Part shown: positions 672 through 60,673 of the stretch, piece after piece
Layout: every line of letters starts with the position of its first letter
Numbering within the stretch: the stretch's first letter is position 1
Virus record (IMG/VR): IMGVR_UViG_3300044998_000129
Span: 1-60,966 of that record
Strand: one strand, 5' to 3'
DNA: 60,966 nt
Origin: a virus
Lineage: Duplodnaviria; Caudoviricetes
Translations under genes and position numbers: made by a program
The notes under the pieces: model-generated
The model's input: only the letters and a program-made list of their open reading frames with translations
What the model was told of the DNA's origin: nothing
The model's database searches: none

Positions 672-1377
672 CGATGGAAGGCTTTTTCGGGTCCGCAAGA
701 TCGTTCCAGCCGTCGAAGTCGAACGGCGGCACGTCGAGCGAAAACCAGCTTGGTCTGTCAAAGTGAGCCATCAACACGTCAAAGGAGCTGTAACCCTGGC
801 CACCGTATGAATAGAAGTCCGCTGGGTGCGCGGCTCCGGCCAATATAAACCGGCCACATTCGCTCCGAATGTTGAGTGAGATTCCAAAGTCGGACGGTCG
901 GTCGAAGTTTCTCATAAACGGCGAAACCTCGCTCATTTTATGGTATAGGCGTTCCAGCCCGATCCGGTTCCATCTTCCGAGGACGGACGGATAATCGAAA
1001 CGAGGATGGTGAATCCCGATGTGGCAGTGAAGCGATTCGACCCAATCGCGATAGGTTGCCAACGGCCACCGTGTCTGCCGGAGCTTCGCCAAGTATGGGT
1101 TCATTAGGTTGTGGACCGATCTGCGAGCCACAACGATGTTAGGTTCATCGCTGTTGCTTAGCAATAGAACTGCGCCTGCGATAAACGCGATGATCGCAAC
1201 GGAAGGCTGCCAATCGGTCGGAAACCGGACCATCCGGCGGACCTCGACCGGATCGTCCGCAAACCGTTTCAAAGGCCGATAATCAGCGTCCAAACGGCCT
1301 GAAACAACCCATAAATCCTCGGGGTTCTTGCGCTTTCGAACCCTCCTTTTTCGCGGTTCAAGGTTCAAAAATTCCAT
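652..1377 (-). CDS. Hypothetical protein with a basic N-terminus, inside the origin-like region
   Basis: 241 aa ORF from ATG at 1377 (MEFLNLEPRKRR) with GGGAGA upstream; no family recognised. Confidence 0.45.
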   Translation of the reverse strand: MEFLNLEPRKRRVRKRKNPEDLWVVSGRLDADYRPLKRFADDPVEVRRMVRFPTDWQPSVAIIAFIAGAVLLLSNSDEPNIVVARRSVHNLMNPYLAKLRQTRWPLATYRDWVESLHCHIGIHHPRFDYPSVLGRWNRIGLERLYHKMSEVSPFMRNFDRPSDFGISLNIRSECGRFILAGAAHPADFYSYGGQGYSSFDVLMAHFDRPSWFSLDVPPFDFDGWNDLADPKKPSIAPFIFE

Positions 1378-1380
1378 TTC

Positions 1381-1711
1381 TCCCACTTTCTCCCACTTTG
1401 CACCCCCTTTTAATCCCACTTTATCTATAAATAAATCAATACTTTATATGTAATTGTATGTAAAGTGGGATAAGTGGGATTGCCGACTTTCGCGTAATTT
1501 TATAGAGGGGCCTAGAACCGCCCCCAGGCCCCCGGAGGGGGATTCTCCCACTTGCCGGGATTTTTCTCCCACTTTGGCCTAACCCATTGATTTCATTAAT
1601 AAAAAAGTGGGAGAAAGTGGGTGAAAGTGGGATAATTTGGCATTGACAGGCAGTCTAACCCATTGATTTTATTACACTTTTGCTTTCTCCCACTTTGATA
1701 ACCCATTGATT
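1381..1711. promoter_or_regulatory. Putative replication origin: TCCCACTT iterons plus IHF-consensus sites
   Basis: 10 exact TCCCACTT/AAGTGGGA copies in both orientations; WATCAANNNNTTR at 1434-1446 (+) and at 1580, 1656, 1699 (-). Confidence 0.6.
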
Positions 1712-1841
1712 TCAAACAATTTTGCCAAAATCCTTGACCAAACGATAAGCCCTACCACAGCCAAATCAGTTCAAAACTCTTAGAACCAAGCAGGTTCTTT
1801 TACACGTCAAGACTCTAAAGCCCATTAAACCCACGGTGGCC

Positions 1842-2075
1842 AAGCCAACTTCTAGCACTATCAGTTAGCACTGTTAGAAGCCAACTTCTAACACTACCAC
1901 CCATATTAGAAGTCAACTTCTAGACTTATTAGAAGCCAACTTCTAGCTTACCTAGAAGCTAGCTTCAGACAGTATCACTTATATTAGAAGCCAGCTTCTA
2001 ACGCTACTAGAAGTTCACTTTAACAGCATTAAGCCAGCTTCTAACGCTACTAGAAGTTCACCAAGTCAGCTTCTA
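1842..2075. repeat. Array of palindromic TAGAAG-N4-CTTCTA sites
   Basis: Exact copies at 1875, 1907, 1930, 1985; degenerate or partial copies at 1842, 1953, 2008, 2031, 2051, 2063. Confidence 0.9.
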
Positions 2076-4532
2076 GCCTTCCCAAGCATCGCCAAAGGTG
2101 TAGAACTTTGTTCTAACTTGACCTGCGAGGACGACTTGATATTGCATCATAATGCTCTCACGAGTAACCTCGGTAAGCACTTCTGCTTTAATTAATTCTT
2201 GCAAAGTCTTTTCGATATGATCTTGCGTTGTCTTGCCTTGCTCGCTCCCTTGGAACGCAGCATTGTTTTTCAAATACCTTAGCAAAAATCCATGCGGGAT
2301 AACATGCTTCAGATCAACAACCGATTTTGGAACTCTATACTGTAGCCTGGTCGTCGGCTTCATCTTTACATATTGCCGAACGGCATCAACCATCGTTGCA
2401 AGTCGAATCATTTCACCGCCGCCGACTTCGCCATCCTCGACCATGTTGATAATGCGCTCGATGATCTTCAAACTAAAGTCACGAGACCAGTTCCAATGTT
2501 CAAGCGTGATCTTCGGGGTGATGTGATTTTCGAAGACAGCGAGATTGCAGGCGACCTTTAGGGCGTTGATCCAGATGCGGCTTAGATACTTTGACAGCAC
2601 GTCATTTTCATTCATGCGCCTTGTCATGAGTTCGTCAAACTCTTTCATAGCCTGCTTTACTTCTGGGGCTACTTCAATATCGACGACCTGATCTGGATTC
2701 ATCCTAAAGGCTTGCCATATGTCAGCTAGCCGGTTAATGATATATTCTGGTATTGGATAATGGATCGAGTTCGTGGGTTTGATGATCCCGTTATATTCGA
2801 TAATCATTATTCGCGCTGCGAGGCCGCTGTCTCTAACATGCCGCTTGCCGAGAAATTCTTTCATGTAGGTCGGCTGCGTGTCGATTATCATTGTGAAGAC
2901 TGGCCGATGGATAGAAGGCGTGCTATCGTCCTTGCTTGCATATTCTTTGGCGGCAATGGAAAAGTTTCTGCCGCCCATGTCGAACAGGCCGAGAAGCAAT
3001 TTCTTGATCTGACCGCCTTGGCCGAGGTCTTCACCAATCAGGCGTAGAAGATCATGGGCGTCTTCTTCGCTCATCGCAACGAGGGGATAAGGTGTTCTTG
3101 TGAATAGCTGCCGGAAGCCTGATCCGGAAGCTGGTATTTGATTGTCGAAGGTCTTCGACAAGTTCGGGTCAAGGGTCTTCACCGTCAAGGCATCCTTGAC
3201 GATTTGTTCCAGCATGACTTTCCTAGCCTGGCCTTTGCCTCGACCTGTTTCAGCCGACAGGAGGAAATATAGCTGAGGGCCAATGCTTCCGCATTGATAG
3301 CGCCTTGCACATAGACCTGAAATTAAATGCAAGGTGTAGGCTATTGCAAACTGACGAATTGGCTTCTTTGACATGTGATACATATACTGAGCCAACTCGC
3401 CTGTAATACCCGGTGGCCAAGGAAAATCCCATTCACCTTGACTTAGCTTGACTTCTTTGGGTAGAACTGATTCGGCGGCTTGGAGGGCCGCCGTTGATAT
3501 TTCGTTTTGAAGGACAGGGCCGATGGGTTCGCCGTTCACGCGCATGTTTGCGTATAGTTTGGCACCGAGTTCTTCATGGGCTTTGATGATAGCTTCGGGG
3601 TCGTCGCCGATTCGCCATCCGTAAGGAATTGCGATTGCACATCGCTGGGCGTAGGGTTCATTGTTCTGACAGTCTAGGCGGCAGAAAATATCGAAGGCGT
3701 CGCCCCATTCACGACCAAGCAATTCCTTGACGGTCGTCGATAGTGTGCTCCAGCCGCCGTCATTCCATACGCGCGTTGCGTATGATCCTGTCGTTTGCGA
3801 TGCATGGTGCCAATCCCGGCCACCGTTGTTCGTTTCAAAGCCGTGGCGGGCCAGCATGTATTCAATCGGGTAAAGGTGATTGAAGTTGCCGCGTTCGCGC
3901 CCTGGCTTTAGGACGGGTCGCTTCTCTTCCTCGGTCGCTAATTTCTCAGCGACAGCTTTAGTTTCATCAGACAAACGGTGGCCTGGTCGAAATAGATACG
4001 GGCTGCCTGGTTCATAATGGTAGGCGTAGTTTCCTCGTGGGTTGGGTAGGTAGCATATTTGATTCGGGCCTTGATTAACGCGATCTATTCCAAACCCGTA
4101 AAGTTCCAGTAAATCATTTAATGCAGTTGCGGCTGCTGAATAATAGATACCTGGAATTGGATTTGCAATAGGAATCAGAACTCTGTATTTGAAATTAGTG
4201 ATGCCATCGTGACTATATGTCGTGTAGATAAGAAACTCTGACTCGGTAATAGCCCGAACGGCTGCGGCTACCTCGTCAATAGTCGGTGGCCCTTTATCAA
4301 TATCTGCCCACAGTATCGGGAAGCTACCCTTTTCGAATTGAACAGATGCAGTTCGGGCGTTGAACTGATTATAGGTGCTAGGAATAATCCAAAAGCCGTC
4401 AGACTTGTCCCCTTGATAGTAAGGGGCCTTTGCAAATTCAACGATGCTTTTGAAATCTGTTGTATGGTATTCGACACCAGAATACAATTTAGTGTCGTGC
4501 TGACCCTTACCAGCGCATACTTGCAGATTCAT
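2073..4532 (-). CDS. Primase-helicase-like replication protein (AEP/Rep-type N-terminus, DUF3987-like C-terminal ATPase)
   Basis: WADID, YTTYSH, YRVLIP and QICYLP primase-like motifs; SAETGRGKG P-loop; probable start ATG 4532. Confidence 0.75.
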   Translation of the reverse strand: MNLQVCAGKGQHDTKLYSGVEYHTTDFKSIVEFAKAPYYQGDKSDGFWIIPSTYNQFNARTASVQFEKGSFPILWADIDKGPPTIDEVAAAVRAITESEFLIYTTYSHDGITNFKYRVLIPIANPIPGIYYSAAATALNDLLELYGFGIDRVNQGPNQICYLPNPRGNYAYHYEPGSPYLFRPGHRLSDETKAVAEKLATEEEKRPVLKPGRERGNFNHLYPIEYMLARHGFETNNGGRDWHHASQTTGSYATRVWNDGGWSTLSTTVKELLGREWGDAFDIFCRLDCQNNEPYAQRCAIAIPYGWRIGDDPEAIIKAHEELGAKLYANMRVNGEPIGPVLQNEISTAALQAAESVLPKEVKLSQGEWDFPWPPGITGELAQYMYHMSKKPIRQFAIAYTLHLISGLCARRYQCGSIGPQLYFLLSAETGRGKGQARKVMLEQIVKDALTVKTLDPNLSKTFDNQIPASGSGFRQLFTRTPYPLVAMSEEDAHDLLRLIGEDLGQGGQIKKLLLGLFDMGGRNFSIAAKEYASKDDSTPSIHRPVFTMIIDTQPTYMKEFLGKRHVRDSGLAARIMIIEYNGIIKPTNSIHYPIPEYIINRLADIWQAFRMNPDQVVDIEVAPEVKQAMKEFDELMTRRMNENDVLSKYLSRIWINALKVACNLAVFENHITPKITLEHWNWSRDFSLKIIERIINMVEDGEVGGGEMIRLATMVDAVRQYVKMKPTTRLQYRVPKSVVDLKHVIPHGFLLRYLKNNAAFQGSEQGKTTQDHIEKTLQELIKAEVLTEVTRESIMMQYQVVLAGQVRTKFYTFGDAWEG

Positions 4533-4673
4533 GAGTTGCCCTTGCCCACAAAGCCCGTTAGACCAGACTGACAGACTGGCACGCAAAACGCAAGCGGAAA
4601 CAAGCCGAACCGCTGGCACTAGACTAATCAGTTTAGTTATTCTAAAAATCTTTGAATATTCGCACACCTGGTC

Positions 4674-4945: not shown

Positions 4946-5090
4946 CATCGTTTCCACGGTCGATCTGGATTCGATCAGTCTGGAAAAGATCGACGCGGAT
5001 ATGATCAAGGACTACCTGGTCCTGAACGCAAACGAGGGTTGGGTGGTGGATTTCACCGCCGAGGAAGCAATCGGTTTGTCAGGCATCTGA
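4929..5090 (+). CDS. Small acidic early hypothetical protein
   Basis: 53 aa from ATG 4929; shares an IDAxxIKDYL...EGW motif with 5664..5987. Confidence 0.55.
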   Translation: MIGVSDIVSTVDLDSISLEKIDADMIKDYLVLNANEGWVVDFTAEEAIGLSGI

Positions 5091-5133
5091 AGGTGATGGC
5101 CTACATCTTGCAAGCTAACAAGTGACTCGGTTC

Positions 5134-5151
5134 GCCGCCCTACGGGGCGGC
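5134..5151 (+). terminator. Stable hairpin with a C(UACG)G loop
   Basis: gccgccc-tacg-gggcggc, intergenic, weak U-tract. Confidence 0.5.
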
Positions 5152-5188
5152 ATTCCCGGTCACTTGGACCGTTAACAGGAGGAACAAA

Positions 5189-5404
5189 ATGACACTCGTT
5201 GTTCGCTATGCGACGAAAAAGGACTTGGCTGCTTCCGTGGGCAAGCGCCTTCGCTACATCGAAACGTCGATGTTTGGTCCGGAATACAAGGATGACGGAG
5301 TTCTCACGGTGGCCGGTCGGCCTCACGTTCACGGAATTCCCAAGTCGCGCGAGTTTTTCGCGCAGGTGACGATGGAGAATGGCATCATCAAGAAGGTGAG
5401 GTGA
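5189..5404 (+). CDS. Small early hypothetical protein
   Basis: AGGAGG RBS; 71 aa. Confidence 0.8.
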   Translation: MTLVVRYATKKDLAASVGKRLRYIETSMFGPEYKDDGVLTVAGRPHVHGIPKSREFFAQVTMENGIIKKVR

Positions 5405-7302: not shown

Positions 7303-7977
7303 ATGAACTTGACTGCGCTTTTCGAACGCTGGGCCACCGACGAAGGCAAGCCCTACAAAGGTCTCTTGATCGACTGGGATGCTTACAAAGCTAATCCTAA
7401 AGATGTGGGCTGCATGTGCGCGCAAGGTCAGATTCTTTATGAAGCTGGATGGACGCCCGAGAGGTTGAAAGATTTGCGTCAAGCTGAGGCTGATCTTGCG
7501 GTCGCCAAACTGCTGAACATTAGCCGCACTCATGCAGTTCTCTTGCGGATCGTTAACGATGGGACGGACGGTGCCCCCACTGTCGTTCTGACCGATCCTA
7601 GCAAAGTTCTTGGCGATCAGTGGAGTAAGATTCTCGATTTCTGGTGGCATCTGGATAGCATGACGGCGAGACAATGGGATGTTGCAGAAGCCGCCGCAGA
7701 AGCCGCCGCACTGGACACCACATGGGACTCTGTGCGGAACACCGCACAGGACGCTGTAGGAACTGCCGCACGGGATGCTGCATGGGACGCCGCAGAAGAC
7801 GCTGCACGGGTTGTCGCACGGAATGCCCCATGGGCCACCGCAGGAGCATCAAACGAAGTCCAAGGCGCTGACATTCTGCGGCGGGATGGAAAACCATTTT
7901 TCTTCCTGCCCGCGTTCGGGTTTGCCACTCCCGACAACATTCCGGCTCGTTCTGATAACTATGGTGTAGGAGGATAA
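7303..7977 (+). CDS. Hypothetical protein with AAWD/AARD-type tetrapeptide repeats
   Basis: AAGGAG RBS; 12-nt degenerate repeat at 7680-7840. Confidence 0.8.
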   Translation: MNLTALFERWATDEGKPYKGLLIDWDAYKANPKDVGCMCAQGQILYEAGWTPERLKDLRQAEADLAVAKLLNISRTHAVLLRIVNDGTDGAPTVVLTDPSKVLGDQWSKILDFWWHLDSMTARQWDVAEAAAEAAALDTTWDSVRNTAQDAVGTAARDAAWDAAEDAARVVARNAPWATAGASNEVQGADILRRDGKPFFFLPAFGFATPDNIPARSDNYGVGG

Positions 7978-8964: not shown

Positions 8965-9828
8965 ATGTCTGAAGAAATCGCAAAAATACCGAATAGTAGC
9001 GAGGCCGAACTAGATTGCCTCGCTTCTGAAATCCTATACGCTACCGAAACGCTGTTCCGAGCTAAGCTAGAATATATTCGCTACGTTGGCTCTCGTTTGT
9101 CAAGGGCCAGGGCGCTGCTTCCATCTGACAAAGATTTCCATGACTGGCGGTCGCTAAACTTTGGCGACAGTCTCACAAGAGAAAGTGCATATAACTACCG
9201 AATCATTGTCGAACGCCTCGGTCATCTTAGCAATGAAGTTTGGGCTAAGATTGGATTGTCAAACTGCTACTTGCTAATGAGCAAAGATCGAGAGACAATC
9301 GACCGTGTTGTTGAGATAGCGATGGCTTCTGAGGAAAAGTCATTGCCTAACTGGAAGTTTTTGGCGCTACTTGCAGAGCCTGAGCTGCCTCCCGATTTAC
9401 CGCCAGAGCTTCGTCCGCCGCCGCCGGGGTATATTCCGCCGCCTACGGCCACGCCTACGGCCACGCCTACGCCTACGGCCACGCCTACGGCCACGCCTAC
9501 GGCCACGCCTACGGCCACGCCTACGGCCACGGCCACGCCTACGGCCACGCCTACGGCCACGCCTACGGCCACGGCCACGCCTACGGCCACGGATCAGAAC
9601 GGCACCCCAAAGATAAAGAAACTTTGGGCTGGACCTGGACCTGTTCCTTTTTATGTGGAGAATGATGATGTGTGCAAGAGAGCTGGATACATGGCTTTCA
9701 AACTAGATGCTACAAAGGAGGAAATCAAACTTGCAACAGGTCTAACAGATCGAAACTTTGATATTGCACTAGCATTTGCATACGGCTATGAAGAAGGCAG
9801 AAAAGACCCAGACTCGCTCGATGACTAA
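8965..9828 (+). CDS. DUF3102-like protein with a Pro/Thr (PTAT)n linker
   Basis: VGSRLSRARALL..FHDW..NF..RESAYNY pattern; 12-nt repeat at 9442-9591. Confidence 0.7.
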   Translation: MSEEIAKIPNSSEAELDCLASEILYATETLFRAKLEYIRYVGSRLSRARALLPSDKDFHDWRSLNFGDSLTRESAYNYRIIVERLGHLSNEVWAKIGLSNCYLLMSKDRETIDRVVEIAMASEEKSLPNWKFLALLAEPELPPDLPPELRPPPPGYIPPPTATPTATPTPTATPTATPTATPTATPTATATPTATPTATPTATATPTATDQNGTPKIKKLWAGPGPVPFYVENDDVCKRAGYMAFKLDATKEEIKLATGLTDRNFDIALAFAYGYEEGRKDPDSLDD

Positions 9829-10895: not shown

Positions 10896-10946
10896 CATTC
10901 CCACGGTGGCCGGGTTAGTGCCACCATTTCAACAACGGAGCGGATA

Positions 10947-11163: not shown

Positions 11164-11853
11164 ATGCCGCTTAATTGGAGCACAACAGACGTAGCTGGTT
11201 CTACGCATGGGATTAAAGCCCTTGTTTACGGAGCGGCTGGCTCTGGAAAAACGACGCTCTGCGGAACTGCACCATCACCGCTTATCATCAGCGCAGAAGC
11301 AGGTCTTTTGTCTCTTCGAAACAAGAAAATACCTGTCTTGGAAGTTAAGACAATTCAAGACGTTTGGGATGCGCTGACTTGGTGTCGTAATGAAGCAGCG
11401 AAAAACGGGATTAAAACAATCTGCCTAGATTCCGTTAGCGAAATTGTGGAAACAGTTCTTGCCAACGAAAAGAAGAAAACAAAAGATCCTAGATTGGCTT
11501 ATGGAGAGACGGCAACCCTAAGCATTGATCTAATCAAGTCGTTCCGTGATTTGGCAGGTTTTAACGTTCTAATTACTGCAAAGCAATCAAATACGACAGA
11601 TGCGATCACGGGAGTTTCTCGCGTTGGACCTACGGCTCCAGGTCAGCAAATTGGACCTGCGCTGCCGTATTTGTTCGATCTTGTGATGCACGCGGCCACC
11701 GACAAAGATTCGAACGGCAAGACTTTCCACTACCTACGAACGCACGCTTCGTTTAACGCAGAAGCTAAAGATAGAAGCGGTGCTCTGGACGAAATCGAAT
11801 TCCCTGATTTTACCGCAATCATAAATAAAATTCAGGGAGCATCAGTAAAATGA
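11164..11853 (+). CDS. Sak4-like AAA_24 ATPase (single-strand annealing recombinase)
   Basis: YGAAGSGKTT Walker A, ICLDSVSE Walker B, AKDRSG; adjacent to a DUF669-type SSB. Confidence 0.85.
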   Translation: MPLNWSTTDVAGSTHGIKALVYGAAGSGKTTLCGTAPSPLIISAEAGLLSLRNKKIPVLEVKTIQDVWDALTWCRNEAAKNGIKTICLDSVSEIVETVLANEKKKTKDPRLAYGETATLSIDLIKSFRDLAGFNVLITAKQSNTTDAITGVSRVGPTAPGQQIGPALPYLFDLVMHAATDKDSNGKTFHYLRTHASFNAEAKDRSGALDEIEFPDFTAIINKIQGASVK

Positions 11854-11887
11854 AAGAGTTTCTTTACACCAGAAAGGAGACTAACTT

Positions 11888-12565: not shown

Positions 12566-12574
12566 TGTCAATGA

Positions 12575-12601: not shown

Positions 12602-12619
12602 CTTCTAAACGGTCGTTTA

Positions 12620-17007: not shown

Positions 17008-17064
17008 GCCTTTCTATGATAACATTTAATCGCAAAAATTCTTTAGGTCTTTTGACTTTAACGC

Positions 17065-50119: not shown

Positions 50120-50893
50120 TCAGAAAAGCCCTTTTAGTTCACCAATCAAGGTGTTAAGAGCGTTTATTTTCTCCTTCGCCACCTGGGCGGGTTGAGGCGT
50201 TTCCGCCGAAGCCGGTTTGAACAGCTCTAGGTTCTTCTTAACTACCTGAGTCAAGCGTGCTGCAACATTCCGACTTTTGACAAGCCCTTCGCGAACCAGC
50301 GCCTTTTCGAGCTCGGCAATAGAGGCAAACACCATATCTTCGTCATCGGTGTTTGATTCTTTTAGATAGGTCATTATTGCTTCCGGATTTCCAGGAAACA
50401 CGACCAACGAGATTTCTTCGAGTTCTCCTTTGTTGATCTGAAGATACTCGGTCTTATCAGGCGTTTGTTTGAATTCGTATTCTTCTAGATAGAAACCAAC
50501 CGAAAAGCTAAAGCCACCAACCATTTTAGCGGCTTCGTAAGCATCCCGAACATAGCTAATATTCAAATTCAATTGGGCTTCGATCCAAAGACGCTCGCCG
50601 CGCGTTTCCAAAATGCGAATAGCTCCGGCAGGCTTGTCTCGATCATGTCCGATGAGCAACTTAATTCCCTTTGGACCATTCAAGCCTTTACGCGCAATAG
50701 ACTCAGCAAAAGCGTTAACCATGACCACATGATTATAATAGTCAAGATCAGGCGTCGAAGCCCATCCCGCTATATAGCCGTCCGGCTTTTCGCCAAGCTC
50801 TTTCAGTTCAAAATCGGTGGCCGGAACATATTTCAGGTCCAGCCATTGCCGCCGAGCAGGGGCTTCCTTCTCAATTTGCCGTTTGCTGGTCAT
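50120..50893 (-). CDS. HK97-type prohead protease
   Basis: GWAST, LLIGHD, FSVGF, LEEISLVVFPGNPEA. Confidence 0.92.
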   Translation of the reverse strand: MTSKRQIEKEAPARRQWLDLKYVPATDFELKELGEKPDGYIAGWASTPDLDYYNHVVMVNAFAESIARKGLNGPKGIKLLIGHDRDKPAGAIRILETRGERLWIEAQLNLNISYVRDAYEAAKMVGGFSFSVGFYLEEYEFKQTPDKTEYLQINKGELEEISLVVFPGNPEAIMTYLKESNTDDEDMVFASIAELEKALVREGLVKSRNVAARLTQVVKKNLELFKPASAETPQPAQVAKEKINALNTLIGELKGLF

Positions 50894-52214
50894 GCTGGTT
50901 CTCCTGATTTGGAGCGCCGTTTTCATCCGTAGCTCCAGCTTCTGCTCCTTCTGCCGCACCTACCTTAAACGGGGTGGCCGGAAGTTCCGTTGTGGCAGGC
51001 CATCCGAACATAGCCCGTTTCTCGTTAGTTGTCAAGAAAGACACAAATGACATGGCGCGCATTGCTTCAGTCCGGGCTTCTACCATAGTCGGGATCGACT
51101 CCATGTCAGGGAAGATACGAACGCCCGGAGGGCACAAAGCCCGAGTTAATCCTTCAAACAAAGGTTCGATATACGAAGGCAAGAGCGTATCTTGCCAAAA
51201 CGAAAGTCGGCTATCTTTGAAATTACCCGTAAACTTCGCAGCATCAGCCGCCCCGAGGCCGCTAATTGCTAGCGGGATACCGAAAGCCCCAAAAATGAGC
51301 CGGGCCATGTCGTCGCTCGGTAGCTTGCTGTGAATGTCAGACAGGTCGTTATCCAATTTGTGGATTTCAATTTCGCCTGCATTTTGTAGAACAGGGACTG
51401 TCCCCGATCCAGCACCACCGGAGGCTGATTCTTGCCCAAGATGCTCTTTTAGTGCTTCAAGCTGAGGAACAGTAAGTGTTTTAGAGCAAGTCACCATATA
51501 ACGAACATTCGGATGGCCCGAAGCAGCTTTAACAGCACGCTTCAAAAGCTCGGTGATAACTTGCGCCGGAAGACCGATTGCTTGAAGCGGATTATTAATG
51601 TCCTCTCGATTTTGGTATCCCTTGAGACCAGGACGCCAGATTTGTGTCACAAAGCCTTTCGAGTCACGACCATTTCGTTCCCAAGAATACTTTGACTGAA
51701 AAGTTTGCTTAGGCGATGTCCCATAGACATACTCAACCACAATACCACGCTCGTTCAAAACAGCTTGGACGTGGCGAGTTTCCAATGGATAAATTCCGTT
51801 TGGTCTTTCACGATCAGTCGCCATATAGGAAATTCGCAACGGAACTCGACCGTAGCCCGCGAAATTCAGTGTCATCCAATAGCGAAGCTGAGCCGGAGTC
51901 ATATCTGGATTCGGGTAATCCAGCAAAGCCTGAATATTCTTAACCACCGATGCCTTGTTCTGCTGATCGGCTTTTGGTGCTCGCGAATCAACATCAGCAA
52001 TCCAACGAACTTGCTGAACAGATTCTGAAATCTTAACAAGGGCTCGGTAAACGATGGGATGTCGAAGTGCCATCTCTAGAGAGATGTAATCCGACATTTT
52101 AATGACAGCAACACCAATACCAGAATTCAAATAGAAAACTTGCGGTTGAAGCGGTGCATCAACCGGGCTTTGAGGTGGAGCAGCTTTAGGTGCAAATAAC
52201 CTCGGAAGCCTCAT
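50871..52214 (-). CDS. HK97-family portal protein
   Basis: P.VYRA...ISES, LLDYPNP.MT, AFGIP, LTTNEKR. Confidence 0.92.
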   Translation of the reverse strand: MRLPRLFAPKAAPPQSPVDAPLQPQVFYLNSGIGVAVIKMSDYISLEMALRHPIVYRALVKISESVQQVRWIADVDSRAPKADQQNKASVVKNIQALLDYPNPDMTPAQLRYWMTLNFAGYGRVPLRISYMATDRERPNGIYPLETRHVQAVLNERGIVVEYVYGTSPKQTFQSKYSWERNGRDSKGFVTQIWRPGLKGYQNREDINNPLQAIGLPAQVITELLKRAVKAASGHPNVRYMVTCSKTLTVPQLEALKEHLGQESASGGAGSGTVPVLQNAGEIEIHKLDNDLSDIHSKLPSDDMARLIFGAFGIPLAISGLGAADAAKFTGNFKDSRLSFWQDTLLPSYIEPLFEGLTRALCPPGVRIFPDMESIPTMVEARTEAMRAMSFVSFLTTNEKRAMFGWPATTELPATPFKVGAAEGAEAGATDENGAPNQENQHDQQTAN

Positions 52215-52223: not shown

Positions 52224-53447
52224 TTAGATATACAAGACATCGGCGGCCTGTTCACCAGAGTAGGAAATTGTCAAATCTTCAACCGCATATCTTATGGCAT
52301 CAATACAATGATCGTTCTGATTAGGAGCCGGAAGAGGCAGCGGTTTTCCGTTAGGGTCTGTATGCCATTTATAGTCTCGGATTTCATCAGCTGTCACCGG
52401 ACAATCGGGCGAAATAACAAGCTCAAAACCTTGCAACCAGTTAATTCCATTTTTGACTGAACCAGCACCTTTTCTTGCACTGTGAATACTGAATCCCTTG
52501 GATTGTAGGTATTCAATTGTTTCAGGTCTTGCACTATCTGCGGTAATCGGCCAGTCACGAATTTCAGTAATGGTGTCCATCAGCGCGGGCAGGTCGCGGT
52601 TAGAAACTTTATAGCCTACAGCTTCTTCCGCAATATAGACAATACCCTCGTCTTCAAGCACATAGAGTTTAATGATGACGTTTGGGTCCGAGCCGTATCC
52701 AAAATCTTCACCAAAGCGAGGACGAATCTTTGGAGGAACATCAATTCGACCGACACGCCAGTTATCGAAGATCGCGACATCGGGATTTTCGTCGTAACCA
52801 CCTTCCCAGATATGAACATGCCGTTTTGGATTCTTCAGCGACCGGCGATATTCCGAGGGCATCCGGGTCTGCATGAAGTAGGGGTTATCTCGCCAGCTTA
52901 CTTTTCGGATATACGACCGTTCCGGAATATTAGCTCCACGAAAAAGATTATCAACTGGGTCTGTGCGATAGCGCGGATTCCACGACCAAATCATTCGCGA
53001 CCCTAGCGTCCGAACAGTCGGGATAATAATTTCAACCGACTTAGCCGTAAACATATGCGCTTCTTCGCCCCAGAAGATAGTGCAACCTTCCAAAGACTTT
53101 GCACTGTCGGGGTTACGATCCATACCAATGAAAGAGAATCTTGATCCAGTCGAAACGTTAACAAGTTCTCTTTCTGTTTCAGTAAAGAACGCTGACATAT
53201 TCATTTTCTTGATTTTAATTTGCAGCAGTTCTTTCACTGAGTCTTTGATCGAGTTTTGAAACTGACGACCGCAGACAATCCGCTCCTCTTTCTTACACGA
53301 AGCACCAATGATCGCTTCCCCAATACTATGTGACTTTGCGCCTCCACGGCCACCGTAGAAGGCGTAGTGCTCGATAGGTTCTTGGGTATCTGGAAACTTA
53401 CCAGTCCAAAGCGGTAGGTAAACTTCCGGAACGATCAAGTTATCCAT
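52224..53447 (-). CDS. terL: Terminase large subunit (PBSX family)
   Basis: YGGRGGAKS, GEEA, SWNP, DFGY..DP, ADSARPE, NDHCIDAIRYA. Confidence 0.95.
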   Translation of the reverse strand: MDNLIVPEVYLPLWTGKFPDTQEPIEHYAFYGGRGGAKSHSIGEAIIGASCKKEERIVCGRQFQNSIKDSVKELLQIKIKKMNMSAFFTETERELVNVSTGSRFSFIGMDRNPDSAKSLEGCTIFWGEEAHMFTAKSVEIIIPTVRTLGSRMIWSWNPRYRTDPVDNLFRGANIPERSYIRKVSWRDNPYFMQTRMPSEYRRSLKNPKRHVHIWEGGYDENPDVAIFDNWRVGRIDVPPKIRPRFGEDFGYGSDPNVIIKLYVLEDEGIVYIAEEAVGYKVSNRDLPALMDTITEIRDWPITADSARPETIEYLQSKGFSIHSARKGAGSVKNGINWLQGFELVISPDCPVTADEIRDYKWHTDPNGKPLPLPAPNQNDHCIDAIRYAVEDLTISYSGEQAADVLYI

Positions 53448-54509: not shown

Positions 54510-55310
54510 TCACCTTCCTCGCACAAATTGAAAATACAAGTAATCTCCGTCTCCAACGATTTGCGGCTGGTTATTATTTCCATAGCTAATAGGAAACGAA
54601 TTACTTGCTGTTTTAGCAGTAGCTTTGATAATTTTTGACAAAGGACCTACAATTCTGTCTCCAGGATGTGAAGCATTTGGATCTTTTACAGAAAAGGCAA
54701 AGGCAAAGTAAGTGTTTTCATATCCATGATATTTAGGAACTTTTGAAAGCGGATTAAAAATGCTAAGCGAAAAAGATTGAGCATATCGTCGATCTTCGAG
54801 AAACGTAGGACGAAGCATTTTTATAAAAGTATGGTTAAGAGAAAAACTAAAAACTCTAATAAGACCACGCCGAAAATAATGCTCTAGTTGTATCCGGCCG
54901 CCAGTCGCAAATTCGCCATCAACAGGCGTAATTGCCCATTTGGAGCGGCGAATTGCCGTGCCGTCTGGATTGTTTTGAGTGCCGTTGCCGATACCACCAC
55001 CTGTCTTTAATACAGGATCATCAGGAAATGACCATCTTCTAGTATGTCGCTCTCGCGTGTTTGGGCGACCTAGCGGGTCTTTTCGAGTATGTCGGCACCA
55101 AGCAAGCTCCAGCCAAGGGTCTTCGGCAGCCTTAAAACTCTCCGGAACGGTTTGAAATCTAACGTAGACTTCATGAAACCAATTAACCGGATCGTTAGAA
55201 AAGTTCGAAATACCAGAGCCGCTGCGCTTAACAAGAACAACGTTTGGAACTGGAATGTCAATCCCAGCGTTTTTAGCTTGACGAACGTTATAGGTGTTGA
55301 CGCCGATCAT
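54510..55310 (-). CDS. Hypothetical late protein
   Basis: 266 aa, TAATG-coupled. Confidence 0.7.
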   Translation of the reverse strand: MIGVNTYNVRQAKNAGIDIPVPNVVLVKRSGSGISNFSNDPVNWFHEVYVRFQTVPESFKAAEDPWLELAWCRHTRKDPLGRPNTRERHTRRWSFPDDPVLKTGGGIGNGTQNNPDGTAIRRSKWAITPVDGEFATGGRIQLEHYFRRGLIRVFSFSLNHTFIKMLRPTFLEDRRYAQSFSLSIFNPLSKVPKYHGYENTYFAFAFSVKDPNASHPGDRIVGPLSKIIKATAKTASNSFPISYGNNNQPQIVGDGDYLYFQFVRGR

Positions 55311-56737
55311 TACACTCGCCTCAGCAAGGTTATCCGAACACCAACGCTCGGACCAATGACAACAACCTGAAGACTATCATTTAGAACAGCTTTTTCCTCA
55401 TTAACGCCACCCGAAGACATCGTTTCGTTTCCGTCCATCAGGAAGTTGACACCGTTAACAGTTAGCGCCGCAGAACCATCATTTGGGTCTCGATTTCGAA
55501 CTGTCCAAGAAACAAGGCCAGGAGTCGAAGAGATATTGATCTGAGCAGGTCCAGGGCCAAGCAGATCAATTACTTCGGTGCGAAAAGCAGGTGTCCTATT
55601 TTGCGTAGGATTGACAAAACTATCGCACGGACCGACTTCCGAATCTTCCGGTAGGGTAATAGCGTCGCCTGTGACGTAATCATGATCTTGAATAGTCACA
55701 AAGTCGCTGTTGAAGTCCTTGTGGAAGTAACGCCGAAACTTTGTTGGCCCTTGGAAAACACTACGAAGCAGTTCAAAGTTATTCTGGCCAACGAAGCCGC
55801 CGTAGGTTCCAATCGGAGTGATCGTTTGCGGCAAGCCCGGATTGATTACATAGGTCTCAATCGTGTTGGTGCCGTAGTTAGCAATGTGCAGAACGTCATT
55901 TTCGTCAAACGACATTCCAGCCCGGTTATTCCAGAAATTAGCCGGAAGCGTGATCGTGTCGAGCACATTACCGCTATTCGGATCACACTCGACAATCGTA
56001 TTAGAAGTGACTTCATCACGCATATAGAGGCGACCTTGGCTATTGAAAGCGGCACCGCCACCGCCAAGGTTCATATTAAACGAGCTAACCCAACGCAGCG
56101 TCAAGAAGCCAGTTGTCGGATTAAGCGTGTAAGCCTCAATCGTGAAGCCTGGACCTAGCGAACCAAAAGCCCAGATTTCGCCAGTCACAGGATTGAATGC
56201 AGAAGCCCGCCAAAATGTCGGGAAAGGAAGGCCACCGGAGAGCGGCAGAACCGATACGACCGCTGGCACACTCGGATCAACAACGGTGGCCTGCGATTGC
56301 GGAACCGTCTCTAGAAAATAGACAAGACCTGTGTCGTAGTCTTGAACGGCCGAATTAAGAGCTGAATCAAGTGTCGGTAAAACACCGGCCGTAAAGAATA
56401 CGTTGCCGCTGCTATCTCGAAGAGTTTCGCCAGTTACATAGCCATACACGCGGGCAGGAACTATGTATTCAAGGCATTGCACATCCGTGAAGTCGCCATC
56501 GCAGCTTCCCGGAGTCCAGACCCCGCCACCCGGAACAAGGGTGGCGAGGTCAATAGTGAACACAGCCGGCCGAACTCCATCCAGCGTGTAGCCAAGAAGA
56601 TAATCTTCGACTCCAACTTGGACTAGATAGTGGGCATACAGCGTTTGAGAAGGCAAAAGAATGTTATTGGGCGTGTAACACCCAAGAACAACTTTTTCCT
56701 CGCCTCTATCAGAACGCTGACCTGACGTAATACCCAT
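55310..56737 (-). CDS. Putative head fibre/adhesin with a beta-propeller-like domain
   Basis: Repeated AFN/SFD..G.LY blades; Cys in flanking linkers. Confidence 0.55.
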   Translation of the reverse strand: MGITSGQRSDRGEEKVVLGCYTPNNILLPSQTLYAHYLVQVGVEDYLLGYTLDGVRPAVFTIDLATLVPGGGVWTPGSCDGDFTDVQCLEYIVPARVYGYVTGETLRDSSGNVFFTAGVLPTLDSALNSAVQDYDTGLVYFLETVPQSQATVVDPSVPAVVSVLPLSGGLPFPTFWRASAFNPVTGEIWAFGSLGPGFTIEAYTLNPTTGFLTLRWVSSFNMNLGGGGAAFNSQGRLYMRDEVTSNTIVECDPNSGNVLDTITLPANFWNNRAGMSFDENDVLHIANYGTNTIETYVINPGLPQTITPIGTYGGFVGQNNFELLRSVFQGPTKFRRYFHKDFNSDFVTIQDHDYVTGDAITLPEDSEVGPCDSFVNPTQNRTPAFRTEVIDLLGPGPAQINISSTPGLVSWTVRNRDPNDGSAALTVNGVNFLMDGNETMSSGGVNEEKAVLNDSLQVVVIGPSVGVRITLLRRV

Positions 56738-57227: not shown

Positions 57228-58013
57228 TTACGAACGTTCAGTCCAATGGACATAGAACGATCCAGTGCTCGTGATGTTGGTCGGGAGGTTTGTAATCTCT
57301 TGGCCTTGCTCTGCGCTCCAAGTCCAAGAACCGGGCGGGGTTACAACCCCATCAATCGAGCCAAAATCATTGATGAAGCTAACTGTGAAGCTAACAACAT
57401 CAGTAGTCCCTGCGGCAAGGGCTAGATTGAATACGTTATTTGCTGGAAGAACGCCGGAAGCCCGCCACTGATTAGTTCGAACAACTGGGCAAACCCCGCG
57501 CACCAGATTAGGACCAGACGGCGGCGGAATAACAATTCCGTTTGCATCAGTCCAGTAAACAGTTCCGTTAGGTTGACCGTTTGACTTTACGATCCATTGC
57601 GTAACGTTCTGACCGTTATCGCACCAAGGAAGCGGATCACTTTCTAGATCAGCGTCAGGACATTGAACTAGATCGCTAAGCAGGCCACCGTAGGGCGAAC
57701 CGTCCAGATTGTAGGCCGTAGCCGTTGGAACACCCGCTGTCGAGTATGAAACGACGACAATGATACTATCGCCGGTGTTAGGATCGCAGCGGATGAACGA
57801 ATCAAACTCGTCAGTGCCTGGATCGCAGGGTCGCGTGCGAACGATCATGCCTTCCGGCCAAAGGACTTCAACAGTTTGGGTTGCCTGCCGAACCTGCGGG
57901 CCGTCGCACTCTTCGATAGTTACATTGAACGGAGTAGTGCCGCCTGTCGGACGAACCGGGAGCGAATTCGGGTCATTTGGTCCGCAAGGAGGATTGCAGG
58001 TGAGGTCAGACAT
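57228..58013 (-). CDS. Cys/Pro-rich virion protein (putative head fibre base)
   Basis: TCNPPCGP N-terminus; several Cys-bounded beta modules. Confidence 0.55.
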   Translation of the reverse strand: MSDLTCNPPCGPNDPNSLPVRPTGGTTPFNVTIEECDGPQVRQATQTVEVLWPEGMIVRTRPCDPGTDEFDSFIRCDPNTGDSIIVVVSYSTAGVPTATAYNLDGSPYGGLLSDLVQCPDADLESDPLPWCDNGQNVTQWIVKSNGQPNGTVYWTDANGIVIPPPSGPNLVRGVCPVVRTNQWRASGVLPANNVFNLALAAGTTDVVSFTVSFINDFGSIDGVVTPPGSWTWSAEQGQEITNLPTNITSTGSFYVHWTERS

Positions 58014-58486: not shown

Positions 58487-58969
58487 TCAGGTGGCGTCTG
58501 CTTCCGGGGCTTTTTCTTCGACAGGTTCCACAAAAGTCCCTGCCTTAATCGGGGTAATGTTGAATGCGACAGGCGGCGCATCAACAATTCCACCAAGCTC
58601 TTGCTTTTCAGCAAGGCCAAGATCACGAGCAATGATCGTCGAGTTCAACAATCCAGCCGCAGCGTTTTCGAACTTTTGCGTGTAGATCGCCTGCTCGACG
58701 AGTTCAACAGCTTCCGCCCAATCCTCACCACGTTCCCGATACTTTTCAAGCCGCGAAACCGGAATCGAGAGATATTGGGCTAGACCCGTTTTCGTGAAAG
58801 GACGAACTTTTGCACGATAGCCGCGAACGATGCTCCCTTTGTATTGAAAGATGTTTTCTTCTTCCAGGGGCGTATCAACGCACCACTGAAAGTAAGAAAC
58901 GCAGGCTTCCAAAAACTCTTGCGCAGTCAGAAAGATTCGTTTTTCTTTTAGCGTCAGATGGGAAAACAT
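58487..58969 (-). CDS. terS: Terminase small subunit (P22 gp3-like)
   Basis: YF.WC...PL, RPFT..GL..YL, IYTQKFE.AAAGLLN..IIARDLGL. Confidence 0.9.
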   Translation of the reverse strand: MFSHLTLKEKRIFLTAQEFLEACVSYFQWCVDTPLEEENIFQYKGSIVRGYRAKVRPFTKTGLAQYLSIPVSRLEKYRERGEDWAEAVELVEQAIYTQKFENAAAGLLNSTIIARDLGLAEKQELGGIVDAPPVAFNITPIKAGTFVEPVEEKAPEADAT

Positions 58970-59053
58970 CGTTGCCTCATTGCGTAGCACTTAGCGTCCC
59001 GCAAGACGCTTTGAAAAGCCTAGATTGAGGGCAACCCAATCCATCGACAGCAA

Positions 59054-59083: not shown

Positions 59084-59509
59084 CTAAAGTTGACGTAAAA
59101 GCTGGATCGGCAGGTTGATATAGTGATTTCCTAGCAAAACGCGGGCTTCGCCATCGCGTATTTTAACAATTCGCCCCAAAAGTTGCCGATACGGACCTGC
59201 TAAAACTTCGATAAAATCACCAATTTTGAACTGATTTTCGTCTCTAGATTCGTTAAGTAATATCTGAAGTTGTGAAAGCTCTTCACTACTAACAGTCTTT
59301 GGTTTATAGTCAGAACTGTATTCAAGAACTCGAGCCATAAAGCGCGAAGGACAAACCCTTCGCAATGATGGCCACCGTTGTGGCGGGATGAAAGCGTAGC
59401 CGGGCATCGCGGCTGCGCCGTCTTTTAGAGGAATCCATAGTTTATGATCGTCACGACCCCATATAAAGAAGTCGTATGTCATTCGACATCGAAGAACAGC
59501 GTAATCCAT
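59084..59509 (-). CDS. NusG/RfaH-family transcription elongation (antitermination) factor
   Basis: NGN-like MPGYAFI; KOW FKIGDFIEVLAGPY..LLG.I. Confidence 0.8.
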   Translation of the reverse strand: MDYAVLRCRMTYDFFIWGRDDHKLWIPLKDGAAAMPGYAFIPPQRWPSLRRVCPSRFMARVLEYSSDYKPKTVSSEELSQLQILLNESRDENQFKIGDFIEVLAGPYRQLLGRIVKIRDGEARVLLGNHYINLPIQLLRQL

Positions 59510-59829
59510 CAAGTTTCCCAAGGTGGCTTAATAACAGAATCTCCCGCAACCAGAACCGTTTTGACCGGAGCCTTAGCGGGAGCCGGAGCTCTTACAGGAG
59601 CTCTTACAGGAGCCTTAGTAGGAGCCAACCGGGGCGTCAACCGCCGCCCTGTAACAGGATCGCGCACTTCAAAACGGTCACCGTATTCCGTCAAATCGTA
59701 GAATTTTGGGAAGATGACGACACACCAGCCATTACCCGGTTCTAATTCAACCTTGGTATGCGCAATTCGTGTGTCGTCTAGCGCATCGGCCACCGTTTGT
59801 GCTTCTTGGCGTGTCTTGTAGAAGGTCAA
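59509..59829 (-). CDS. Hypothetical protein with a (RAPV/KAPA)n tail
   Basis: 106 aa; TTG start overlaps the upstream stop; ends PPW. Confidence 0.65.
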   Translation of the reverse strand: MTFYKTRQEAQTVADALDDTRIAHTKVELEPGNGWCVVIFPKFYDLTEYGDRFEVRDPVTGRRLTPRLAPTKAPVRAPVRAPAPAKAPVKTVLVAGDSVIKPPWET

Positions 59830-60155
59830 TGCATGTGTCTCGAAACGATTTCACCAGCCTTGCGACCGACCAGCCAAGGCATGACGAAAGCCAGCCAGAG
59901 AATGAAGTATAGCCATGTGAAGATCACAAAGACCGCAACAAGCAGGCTGTCTGGAAAGTTGTCAGCCAAAAAGATGCCAAAAATAAGAAGAATCCAAGGT
60001 TGGTGATTCAACCGCCAAGCGCGTTCTTTTTTGAGGATAGCCTGCTCGCGATCGTAGGCTTCCAAAGCGGCTAAAAAGTTAGCACGAGCCTCAGGCGTTG
60101 CGGTGTGCCAGTGCTTCCGCGCGATGCGGATGTGTTTCTCTCTGAATTTGTCCAT
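59826..60155 (-). CDS. Membrane protein with two hydrophobic helices
   Basis: GGAG RBS, ATG 60155. Confidence 0.7.
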   Translation of the reverse strand: MDKFREKHIRIARKHWHTATPEARANFLAALEAYDREQAILKKERAWRLNHQPWILLIFGIFLADNFPDSLLVAVFVIFTWLYFILWLAFVMPWLVGRKAGEIVSRHMH

Positions 60156-60183
60156 GATAGTTCTCCGTTGCCCACTATTGCCT

Positions 60184-60225
60184 AAGATAGCAAGGCTTGC
60201 GCCCCGTGTCAAGCCGTGTTAAAAT
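60184..60225. promoter_or_regulatory. Overlapping divergent RpoD-type promoters
   Basis: Plus: TTGCGC(60197)-N17-TAAAAT; minus: TTGACA(60212)-N17-TATCTT. Confidence 0.65.
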
Positions 60226-60250
60226 GCGCTATTGGCAGCGGAGTTGGAAC

Positions 60251-60673
60251 ATGGTCTTAAATTCAAAAGTAAAAGGCGCTAACGGCGAACGCGAGCTCGC
60301 ACAACTTCTTACAAGTTGGGCTCGAGAAATCGGGATTGAACTTGATCTGATTAGAAACCTCGAACAGGTTCGCTCCGGTGGCCACGATTTACTTGGTGTT
60401 CCGGGGCTGGCCACCGAGTGTAAGCGCGTTGAAGCCCTTGCCGTGAGCACTTGGTGGGGTCAAGCTCAGCGCCAAGCTAGAGAAGTAGGACTTCAGCCGC
60501 TATTGGCTTATCGACAAAATCGCAAGAAATGGCAATTTATCACTGAAACTTGGGTCTGGCCTTGCAAAACACGTCCGATTGTGATTTATATGGACGAAGA
60601 AGAAGCTAGAATTTGGTTTCACGGCCATTTAGTGCATCATTTTACTTTGCAGCAACAACCTAGCCGAGAGTAA
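60251..60673 (+). CDS. PD-(D/E)XK nuclease, Holliday junction resolvase-like
   Basis: NSKVKGANGERE, GGHDL, ECKRVE, WW.QA..QA, YRQNRK.W. Confidence 0.85.
   Translation: MVLNSKVKGANGERELAQLLTSWAREIGIELDLIRNLEQVRSGGHDLLGVPGLATECKRVEALAVSTWWGQAQRQAREVGLQPLLAYRQNRKKWQFITETWVWPCKTRPIVIYMDEEEARIWFHGHLVHHFTLQQQPSRE

Follow-up and report, generated by a model that had tools for sequence, protein, structure and literature searches.

The octamer CGGTGGCC is written through the genes of the tailed-phage record IMGVR_UViG_3300044998_000129, which was analysed over its whole length of 60,966 bp (here called the window). The closest described signals include Chi, uptake sequences and KOPS (FtsK-orienting polar sequences), each of which revealed a DNA-reading machine that works in one direction. 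Neisseria and Haemophilus uptake sequences occur about once per kb, in both orientations and all frames, are evenly spaced and form inverted-pair hairpins after genes; KOPS are polar octamers that guide DNA translocases and are skewed one way on each chromosome arm. Among replication enzymes the pRN1 prim-pol needs GTG, RSF1010 RepB' uses ssiA and ssiB, and the phage P4 alpha protein has octamer iterons; known primase words are 3-5 letters long and need no enrichment, and the ssi (single-strand initiation) signals and P4 iterons sit at origins. Chi is also present in phage P1. E. coli phage LLS carries 23 Chi (20 of them pointing one way) and Pseudomonas phage MD8 carries 32 copies of the Pseudomonas "Chi" (all 32 one way), where this is the commonest octamer of the genome (PMC12315714, in its available part). 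In phages the window's word occurs densely, at even intervals and on alternating strands, unlike in the host DNA sampled, and it differs by a letter or two between phage lineages.

Enrichment, orientation and turnover of the octamer

An exact search finds CGGTGGCC 51 times in the window, 23 times on the + strand and 28 times on the - strand, and it is the commonest 8-mer there. The sequence-only reading from which this work started had listed 50 of these, every one at its correct coordinates, and had missed one (Table 1); it expected about two copies, and Markov models of orders 0-3 give 1.3-2.6. In 100 dinucleotide-preserving shuffles the mean was 1.26 and the maximum 5. Shuffling synonymous codons within genes (n=300) gave a mean of 10.5 and a maximum of 16, and permuting codons (n=300) a mean of 8.7 and a maximum of 14, both figures including seven fixed non-coding copies; the 44 genic copies observed thus compare with about 3.5 expected from the synonymous shuffles and about 1.7 from the permutations. 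The enrichment persists under every one of these null models. Our own gene calls place 24 copies in sense and 20 in antisense orientation and seven in non-coding DNA, with all six frames in use, so the earlier view that this is a DNA-level signal which protein coding does not explain, and which also occurs in non-coding DNA, is borne out. Four of the seven non-coding copies make up two inverted-pair hairpins after genes.

The word is sharply bounded. C precedes GGTGGCC in 51 of 53 occurrences, and the one-mismatch variants of CGGTGGCC occur 0-9 times each, so all eight positions are held and there is no halo of decayed copies. Preferences in the flanks are weaker: A or T at -1 in 41 of 51 copies (27 A, 14 T; 40 of 50 had been counted before), C at -3 (26 of 51) and a purine at +1. 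Outside the word GGCC is neither avoided nor enriched in the window (257 versus 263 expected), and GTGGC by itself reaches only 1.0-1.5 times expectation.

The copies alternate in orientation (37 runs versus 26.3 expected, P=0.0007) and are spaced more evenly than chance (largest gap 3237 bp, P=0.008). The statement that they show no strand polarity is thus correct as a global count, but it overlooked the alternation. The one-way orientation expected of a Chi used by a phage is not what we see. Evenness is clearest when each strand is taken alone, with coefficients of variation (CVs) of the same-strand gaps of 0.61/0.66 in the window (P 0.01/0.009). That the word is counted separately on each strand argues for a reader that recognises a single strand or travels one way along the DNA.

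Scanning IMG/VR with the capsid protein yielded 61 related loci. The word is the top or near-top 8-mer in the closer relatives only, where its fourth letter is T, A or G (CGGDGGCC), and in this form the same enriched and spaced signal is present in at least ten related metagenomic phage records. The A/C/G/T counts at position 4 of CGGNGGCC are 3/8/1/51 in the window, 12/0/10/30 in G001, 23/7/8/47 in G002 and 11/7/26/23 in G003. Five complete relatives with 53-59% capsid identity (G409-G413) have 2-19 CGGDGGCC, which is the level of the reversed-word control. As a separate observation, CGGCGGCC, usually frequent in GC-rich coding DNA, has 0 copies in G001 (63 kb, 55.6% guanine plus cytosine (GC); the IMG/VR record behind locus L007), where the T, A and G forms number 30, 12 and 10; this lineage may select against C at position 4.

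Alternation of CGGDGGCC recurs in G001 (P=0.002), G003 (P=0.005), G695 (P=0.0002) and G696 (P=0.0003), and locus L354 has 18 orientation changes among 19 copies. The same-strand gap CVs on the two strands are 0.35/0.46 in G001, 0.37/0.35 in G695 and 0.54/0.49 in G003; overall they span 0.29-0.66, mostly with P<0.01. On a single strand, neighbouring copies are on average 1.6-3 kb apart in the CGGDGGCC records and 2.9/4.1 kb apart in the cultured phage Yong-L2-223 described below, and per-strand copies lie at Okazaki-fragment distances on the templates of both fork directions. Eight overlapping palindromes of the form CGGDGGCCHCCG are found in the relatives.

Individual sites are mostly not shared. 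In the alignments 6 of 33 sites in G002, 2 of 22 in G001, 2 of 21 in G003 and 1 of 16 in G004 fall at the same position as in the window, and many word sites coincide with amino acid differences between the window and its relatives. Related phages therefore keep the word and its density but for the most part not its positions, which indicates that selection or drive maintains the number and spacing of copies rather than their places. A hairpin-pattern scan of IMG/VR gave no unrelated phage with the signal among the matches listed, which were mostly chance matches in GC-rich DNA; word versus control counts in two of its records were 12 versus 10 (G414) and 22 versus 8 (G415). Locus L194 from the same scan was set aside as a tandem 7-mer array.

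Genes that accompany the signal

Judged by gene content, the signal follows the replication module and not the capsid/tail module. The complete 54-kb record G695 is signal-positive (39 copies, with A, G and T equally used at position 4) and has in common with the window the replication/modification arm from primase to PolA, the small terminase, the NusG-like gene and a gene for a 73-amino-acid (aa) protein; none of the window's capsid, portal, large terminase and tail genes is shared. G409, G412 and G413, which have structural genes alone in common with the window, are signal-negative. G410 and G411 also lack the signal (their best words are weak and unevenly spaced); they carry Sak4-like, DUF669, Cas4-like nuclease and helicase genes, the gene for the protein encoded at 17139, QueE/C/D, FolE, DpdA and the clamp, as well as the helicase core of the primase. 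The Cas4-like nuclease, helicase and Sak4 module and DpdA, proposed earlier to read the word as a self tag, and the basic 17139 protein, proposed to bind it, are thus all present in signal-free genomes, and none of them is sufficient.

Less complete records narrow the list further. G697 is motif-poor (6 copies in 31.8 kb) and has the primase N-terminal part, DUF7173, Sak4-like, DUF669, RNase H-like, Cas4-like, small terminase and 73-aa protein genes. Loci L001 and L002 encode the helicase and polymerase (55-58% identity) with no Que/DpdA genes in between, and each has two copies of the word. (L001, an IMG/VR fragment, has GACCAGC 11 times in 10.4 kb and may carry another dispersed word.) Homologues of the small terminase and the NusG-like protein are found in loci without enrichment. 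The small terminase, the NusG-like protein, the 73-aa protein, DUF7173, the RNase H-like protein and PolA were each rejected as readers, being present in a signal-free record or missing from a positive one.

These distributions bear on the idea, which we consider improbable, that the word is a binding or pause site for the NusG/Spt5-like factor on RNA polymerase or a packaging mark for the small terminase. Both genes accompany the signal in G001-G003, G695 and G694, and in Yong-L2-223 annotated NusG and small terminase genes lie side by side; RfaH, a relative of NusG, recognises a short word in the non-template strand. Yet with 20 antisense against 24 sense copies about half would be useless to a transcription factor, and G693 is enriched with no detectable NusG-like gene. 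L269 has NusG-like and small terminase genes (30% and 59% identity) but one copy in 7.5 kb, and L276, L277 and L278, with small terminases at 52-56%, show no enrichment, whereas G003, with one at 38%, is enriched.

We give as little credence to the word being a target or an excluded site of the phage DpdA, with modified copies acting as marks. The QueC/D/E-FolE-DpdA set is present in every signal genome in which the module is covered, the two loci without Que/DpdA genes between helicase and PolA are those with two copies each, and the word is G-rich on both strands. However, DpdA is present in signal-free G410/G411 at 48-49% identity to that of the window, on a par with the positive G001 (50%) and nearer than the positive G695 (40%), and a modification target gives no reason for even spacing on each strand. 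The known motifs, in the accessible portion of PMC10484667, are also of 2-3 letters (GA; GA, GGC, GGT).

The best candidate reader, on genome distribution alone, is the DUF2786/DUF7168 protein. Every signal-bearing genome in which the region is covered has its gene: G001, G002, G003, G695 and G694, loci L353, L354, L356, L358 and L361, and phages Yong-L2-223, RHph_Y17 and M39. G409-G413 and G697 are without it. Where the gene would lie by synteny, the open reading frames (ORFs) for DUF669 and RNase H adjoin directly in G697, and G410 has a 376-bp stretch free of ORFs. The five loci, newly found by DUF2786 alignment, are all enriched, L358 weakly (6 versus 2.8).

Full-length homologues of this protein (~30% identity) occur, among GenBank phages, only in the Synechococcus phages Yong-L2-223 and Ssp-JY38, the Sulfitobacter phage M39 and six records of the RHph series of Rhizobium phages. 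Yong-L2-223 has the architecture of the window, including an annotated NusG beside the small terminase, and its word CTGTGGCA occurs 38 times versus 3.05 expected, with alternating orientation (P=0.003) and a gap CV of 0.56 (0.29 for the + strand alone). RHph_Y17 has CCTGTGG 23 times versus 3.9 expected in 50 kb (CV 0.50), and M39 has TGTGGMCA 27 times with weaker regularity. These sister words match the window's word at six of eight letters or in a GTGG core, in phages whose hosts are a cyanobacterium and alphaproteobacteria. The cultured relatives and the window have in common DUF2786, the Cas4-like nuclease, the helicase, the C-terminal part of the 17139 protein, Que/FolE/DpdA and the clamp.

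The second candidate reader is the primase-helicase, which probably starts at residue 46. Its N-terminal domain (3633-4532, - strand) has an archaeo-eukaryotic primase (AEP) fold, modelled at a pLDDT (predicted local distance difference test) of 93, whose best Foldseek match is 6zp9 (E=1.6e-4), the PrimPol of cyanophage S-2L; the RepB' and poxvirus D5/E5 folds also match. A 50%-identity library contains 852 homologues of this domain at E<=0.001, a large family for which Pfam has no model; its fusion partner is usually a DUF3987 helicase and in one case a herpes-type origin-binding helicase. The proposal that the word is a primase start signal is viable and fits the per-strand spacing, but the AEP domain is not found in the cultured relatives with sister words.

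Host DNA and the reading of the word

Host-side DNA was sampled as 401 alphaproteobacterial genomes and 301 genomes of Pseudomonadota, two partly overlapping sets (two of the 401, G248 and G048, are unpublished and represented by count rows only). No genome in either set has the word at a phage-like density: the highest value is 0.52/kb, versus 0.84/kb in the phage, in the GC-rich G685, with 2165 copies versus 1786 of the reversed-word control. None of the genomes in either set much exceeds that control, and a density of about 1/kb like that of uptake sequences was not found among the Pseudomonadota genomes searched. Bradyrhizobium genomes with distant prophage relatives have the word at control level. 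In 400 kb of G064 there is no strand skew (53 versus 37, rank 1400 of 4396). Plasmid pAQ7 of Synechococcus sp. PCC 7002 has 14 CTGTGGCA in 186 kb versus 5 of the control (0.075 versus 0.58/kb in the phage), and CCTGTGGT reaches at most 0.054/kb in 121 genomes of the order of Bradyrhizobium G006, versus 0.24 in RHph_Y17. Two apparent host-side outliers were dismissed, G209 (52 copies in 357 kb versus 46 expected, Markov order 3) and G265 (about 1 per 20 kb, partly inside a repeated unit), and runs of "+" matches at the starts of complete genomes, which might have been taken for replication skew, are an artefact of listing order.

It had been proposed that the word mimics a host Chi and so protects phage DNA; more broadly, it might imitate either a Chi read by RecBCD/AddAB or an uptake-type word of the host, to the protection or advantage of phage DNA. 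The window's word contains GGTGG, like E. coli Chi, and its inverted-pair hairpins after genes resemble those of uptake sequences. Chi-rich phages such as LLS and MD8 exist (PMC12315714, as far as its available part goes), and the choice of T or A at position 4 is reminiscent of GGTGG and GGAGG in H. influenzae (PMC8022716, likewise in part). Nevertheless, words with a GTGG core are found in phages of a cyanobacterium and of alphaproteobacteria, whose end-processing enzymes differ; none of the alphaproteobacterial or Pseudomonadota genomes sampled reaches phage density or lies much above its control, skew is absent from G064, and pAQ7 and the order of G006 are low in sister words. The copies here alternate and a recombination module is present, whereas the known Chi-rich phages are one-sided and, in the available part of PMC12315714, without such a module. 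Given sister words across phyla, no phage-like density in the host-side DNA sampled and no one-sided orientation, we now regard it as unlikely that the word mimics a host Chi.

Sister words on distant hosts, linkage to the replication module and no host enrichment together point to a reader of the phage's own. We infer that a phage protein reads the word, and likewise which protein this would be and what would happen at the site. That the octamer is the phage's own signal, read in one orientation by its replication/recombination module, is the reading we favour, tentatively and at somewhat short of an even chance. Selection would keep one readable copy per ~2-3 kb on each strand, and the copies may be restart points for the phage replisome on the lagging-strand template, by primer synthesis or by loading of a helicase or primosome. 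Lagging-strand re-initiation is favoured because the spacing is of Okazaki size, both strands are served, and a need for eight letters would force writing into genes: a word of this length is too rare by chance, so the phage has to place copies within its genes, on both strands. The DUF2786/DUF7168 protein would be the first candidate for the reader by its distribution and the AEP primase-helicase the second.

Several observations weigh against this reading. Alternation is weaker or missing in some records (runs P=0.10 in G002; not significant in G004, G693 and G694). When seven genomes are pooled, "+ then -" neighbours are closer than "- then +" (median 527 versus 1108 bp, P=0.0005), and the window and G694 reverse this tendency. 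The DUF2786 link is a correlation within one module family, as the loci found with DUF2786 carry the whole module; the model of the protein is mediocre (pLDDT 68) and has no Foldseek match at E<=0.001, a sequence search of the PDB gave a chance-level match only, and a comparison with a protein atlas returned only DUF2786/DUF7168 clusters. As for the primase, tblastn with the AEP domain of the window gives no match in Yong-L2-223, RHph_Y17 and M39 match the primase-helicase only from residue ~408 onward, outside that domain, and the domain is present at 25-32% identity in motif-poor G697; thus the type of primase does not track the word. We know of no primase or loader that needs eight letters.

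The main alternative to lagging-strand re-initiation is a Chi-like word owned by the phage, at which the Cas4-like nuclease and helicase, perhaps with DUF2786, would be switched or stopped; phage DNA would then be spared or sent to Sak4-dependent recombination, and host DNA without the word degraded. A reader that depends on orientation and enters from any end of a permuted genome needs regular active copies on each strand, as seen, and the module holds a Cas4-like exonuclease, helicase, Sak4-like ATPase and DUF669 protein beside DUF2786. The small terminase of the window (58487-58990) is of the P22 gp3 type, which implies headful packaging and permuted ends. However, genes for the nuclease, helicase, Sak4-like and DUF669 proteins occur in G410 and G411, where the word is missing, and no Chi system encoded by a phage is known to us; we regard this alternative as unlikely, if less so than host mimicry.

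Returning to a signal of the phage's own, a bolder form of that reading, which we hold to be doubtful, is that a phage family spread across host phyla uses a private eight-letter punctuation of its chromosome, lineage-specific with a GTGG core, placed every 2-3 kb per strand under selection that changes proteins, and read by the DUF2786/DUF7168 protein to start or control DNA synthesis or end-processing. This would be a mode of sequence-addressed phage replication or self-recognition not described before. If a phage protein does read the word, a widespread domain of unknown function would gain a function and a virus would be addressing its own DNA; the word would also be a sequence signature by which to spot the replication module in metagenomes. 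Direct tests are feasible, since sister words are found in cultured relatives that grow on laboratory hosts (Synechococcus sp. PCC 7002; Rhizobium).

The phage genome and comparison with known systems

The window is an entire virus record, a single contig of 48% GC with a CheckV completeness of 96%. It is a tailed phage with a structural arm (major capsid, portal and large terminase genes) and an arm of replication, recombination and modification genes (Table 1). Its Sak4-like protein is an AAA_24 ATPase, the helicase belongs to superfamily 2 and the polymerase to family A, and a ligase-like protein is also encoded. No GenBank phage has DNA nearly identical to the window, the best matches of its DNA polymerase are at 44-48% identity, and no tRNAs were found in it. 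Sequencing runs that hold the window's DNA are labelled as hot-spring and microbial-mat metagenomes, and the five best holders may be the source itself; comparison of the capsid protein with the protein atlas gave no clue to the host.

Table 1. Copies of CGGTGGCC in the window, with the module and candidate-reader genes. Positions of the 8-mer are from the exact search, sense, antisense and non-coding status from our own gene calls; "same place in G002" marks a position shared in the alignment with relative G002.
Feature	Position	Strand	Context
Replication/recombination/7-deazaguanine module	11164-24742	+	Sak4-like, DUF669, DUF2786, RNase H-like, Cas4-like exonuclease, helicase; also QueE/C/D, FolE (GTP cyclohydrolase I), DpdA, clamp, PolA; signal travels with module
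DUF2786/DUF7168 protein gene, 234 aa	13066-13770	+	candidate reader; sole gene whose presence tracks the signal
Primase-helicase gene	2073-4667	-	AEP-fold N-domain (residues 46-345) and DUF3987 helicase (D5/P4-type); second candidate reader
Copy of CGGTGGCC	798-805	-	sense, ORF 652-1419(-)
Copy	1064-1071	-	sense, ORF 652-1419(-)
Copy	1834-1841	+	non-coding; abuts 22-nt repeats 1842-2073 by primase gene
Copy	3411-3418	+	antisense, primase-helicase gene
Copy	3818-3825	-	sense, primase-helicase gene
Copy	3976-3983	+	antisense, primase-helicase gene
Copy	4284-4291	+	antisense, primase-helicase gene
Copy	5307-5314	+	antisense, ORF 5012-5332(-)
Copy	7332-7339	-	antisense, ORF 7303-7977(+)
Copy	7833-7840	-	antisense, ORF 7303-7977(+)
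Copy	10904-10911	+	non-coding
Copy	11694-11701	-	antisense, Sak4-like (AAA_24) gene
Hairpin, two inverted copies (12578-, 12592+)	12578-12599		after DUF669 gene
Copy	14357-14364	-	antisense, Cas4-like exonuclease gene; same place in G002
Copy	14778-14785	+	sense, Cas4-like exonuclease gene
Copy	15506-15513	+	sense, helicase gene
Copy	15657-15664	-	antisense, helicase gene
Copy missed earlier	18449-18456	-	antisense, QueE gene
Copy	20154-20161	+	sense, GTP cyclohydrolase I gene; same place in G002
Copy	20510-20517	-	antisense, ORF 20489-20821(+)
Copy	23604-23611	+	sense, DNA polymerase A gene
Copy	24879-24886	+	sense, ORF 24797-25195(+)
Copy	26141-26148	-	antisense, ligase-like gene
Copy	26302-26309	+	sense, ligase-like gene
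Copy	27319-27326	-	sense, ORF 27240-28061(-); same place in G002
Copy	28165-28172	+	non-coding
Copy	31402-31409	-	sense, ORF 30761-31684(-)
Copy	33059-33066	+	antisense, ORF 32892-33485(-)
Copy	34789-34796	-	sense, ORF 34075-35418(-)
Copy	36042-36049	+	antisense, ORF 35419-36648(-)
Copy	36773-36780	-	sense, ORF 36608-41191(-)
Copy	38021-38028	+	antisense, ORF 36608-41191(-)
Copy	38467-38474	-	sense, ORF 36608-41191(-)
Copy	38848-38855	+	antisense, ORF 36608-41191(-)
Copy	41424-41431	-	sense, ORF 41382-41975(-)
Copy	42987-42994	-	sense, ORF 42544-44058(-)
Copy	43644-43651	+	antisense, ORF 42544-44058(-)
Copy	46178-46185	-	sense, ORF 45717-46388(-)
Copy	47095-47102	-	sense, ORF 46388-47131(-)
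Hairpin, two inverted copies (48613+, 48625-)	48613-48632		directly downstream of major capsid gene
Copy	50815-50822	+	antisense, ORF 50120-50959(-)
Copy	53348-53355	-	sense, large terminase gene
Copy	56230-56237	-	sense, ORF 55310-56737(-)
Copy	56284-56291	+	antisense, ORF 55310-56737(-)
Copy	57683-57690	-	sense, ORF 57228-58013(-)
Copy	59370-59377	-	sense, NusG/Spt5-like gene; same place in G002
Copy	59788-59795	-	sense, ORF 59509-59829(-)
Copy	60376-60383	+	antisense, ORF 60229-60450(-)
Copy	60409-60416	-	sense, ORF 60229-60450(-); same place in G002

Other features of the window were seen in passing. The NusG/Spt5-like protein (145 aa; 59084-59521, - strand), whose gene adjoins that of the small terminase, has weak matches in its KOW part (E 8e-4 to 0.05). 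The ends of the window (1-254 and 60859-60963) are tandem arrays of 11-12-nt units, the left one C-rich (CCGCCCTACGGCCCGCCCTA type) and the right one G-rich (GGGGCTGGGGCTG) and terminating in G runs; they may mark an assembly break within one repeat array or be real end structures. Internal tandem arrays of 12-nt period lie at 20508-20822 (GTAGGGCAGGCT type, between the GTP cyclohydrolase and DpdA genes, resembling the reverse complement of the left-end array) and, inside ORFs 8965-9828 and 47334-47795, at 9398-9613 and 47362-47497. These internal arrays account for the frequent 8-mers AGGGCAGG and CCTACGGC; AGGGCAGG and other frequent 8-mers of the window lie in tandem arrays and were rejected as dispersed signals. 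A largely non-coding stretch beside the primase-helicase gene holds repeats at 242-506, 1378-1707 and 1842-2073, namely an AT-rich array of 13/20-nt period and two dispersed direct-repeat sets (TTCTCCCACTT, and a 22-nt unit in five copies), and looks like an origin region. The protein encoded at 28580-29878 (- strand), with collagen-like triple-helix repeats (9-nt tandem array 29109-29450), is probably a tail fibre. Some 6-bp palindromes are wholly avoided (observed/expected AAGCTT 0/28, AGCGCT 0/16, GATATC 0/14; also 0 for CCCGGG, ACCGGT, GCATGC and GACGTC, with 11, 9.8, 9.6 and 6 expected), and relatives avoid different, partly overlapping ones (GCCGGC 0/30 in G001, GGCGCC 0/41 in G003). This avoidance in the window and G001-G003 points to hosts with many restriction systems, even though 7-deazaguanine genes are present.

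In the literature that we searched on over-represented octamers, regularly spaced phage motifs, DUF2786, the cultured relatives and Kleczkowskavirus the phenomenon is undescribed (the supplementary octamer lists of PMC8022716 lie outside this scope), and the octamer itself, used as a search word, brought up one irrelevant paper. The mechanism stands a fair chance of being new. The nearest described systems each share features with the window's word, and each fails in one that was tested. Like the signals of the Chi-rich phages in the available part of PMC12315714, it is a non-palindromic octamer at or near the top of the 8-mers, about one per 1-2 kb, running through genes. Those phages, however, use the host's Chi in one direction, clustered near one end, and that part of the source gives them no recombination genes, while here the copies alternate and are evenly spread, the phage encodes a recombination module and the genomes sampled showed no enrichment on the host side. 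Uptake sequences and the window's word are alike in their density of about 1/kb, orientations, frames, evenness and hairpins, but uptake sequences are a property of host chromosomes driven by uptake bias, whereas this word is dense only in the phages among the DNA examined. With KOPS it shares eight letters, one free position and a reading in one direction by a moving machine; the excess of orientation changes in the window, G001, G003, G695, G696 and Yong-L2-223 sets it apart. Like T7 primase sites (known here from a partial source), ssi and prim-pol signals, it would be a strand-specific word for a primase or primase-helicase, the sister words share GTG(G), and the window's primase, whose AEP fold matches RepB' and D5/E5, is joined to a D5/P4-type helicase. 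Unlike those signals and the P4 iterons, the window's word occurs every 2-3 kb through the genes and does not track the primase type; its copies are dispersed rather than clustered at an origin as expected of P4 alpha-type iterons, and the tandem repeats beside the primase gene are separate from it.

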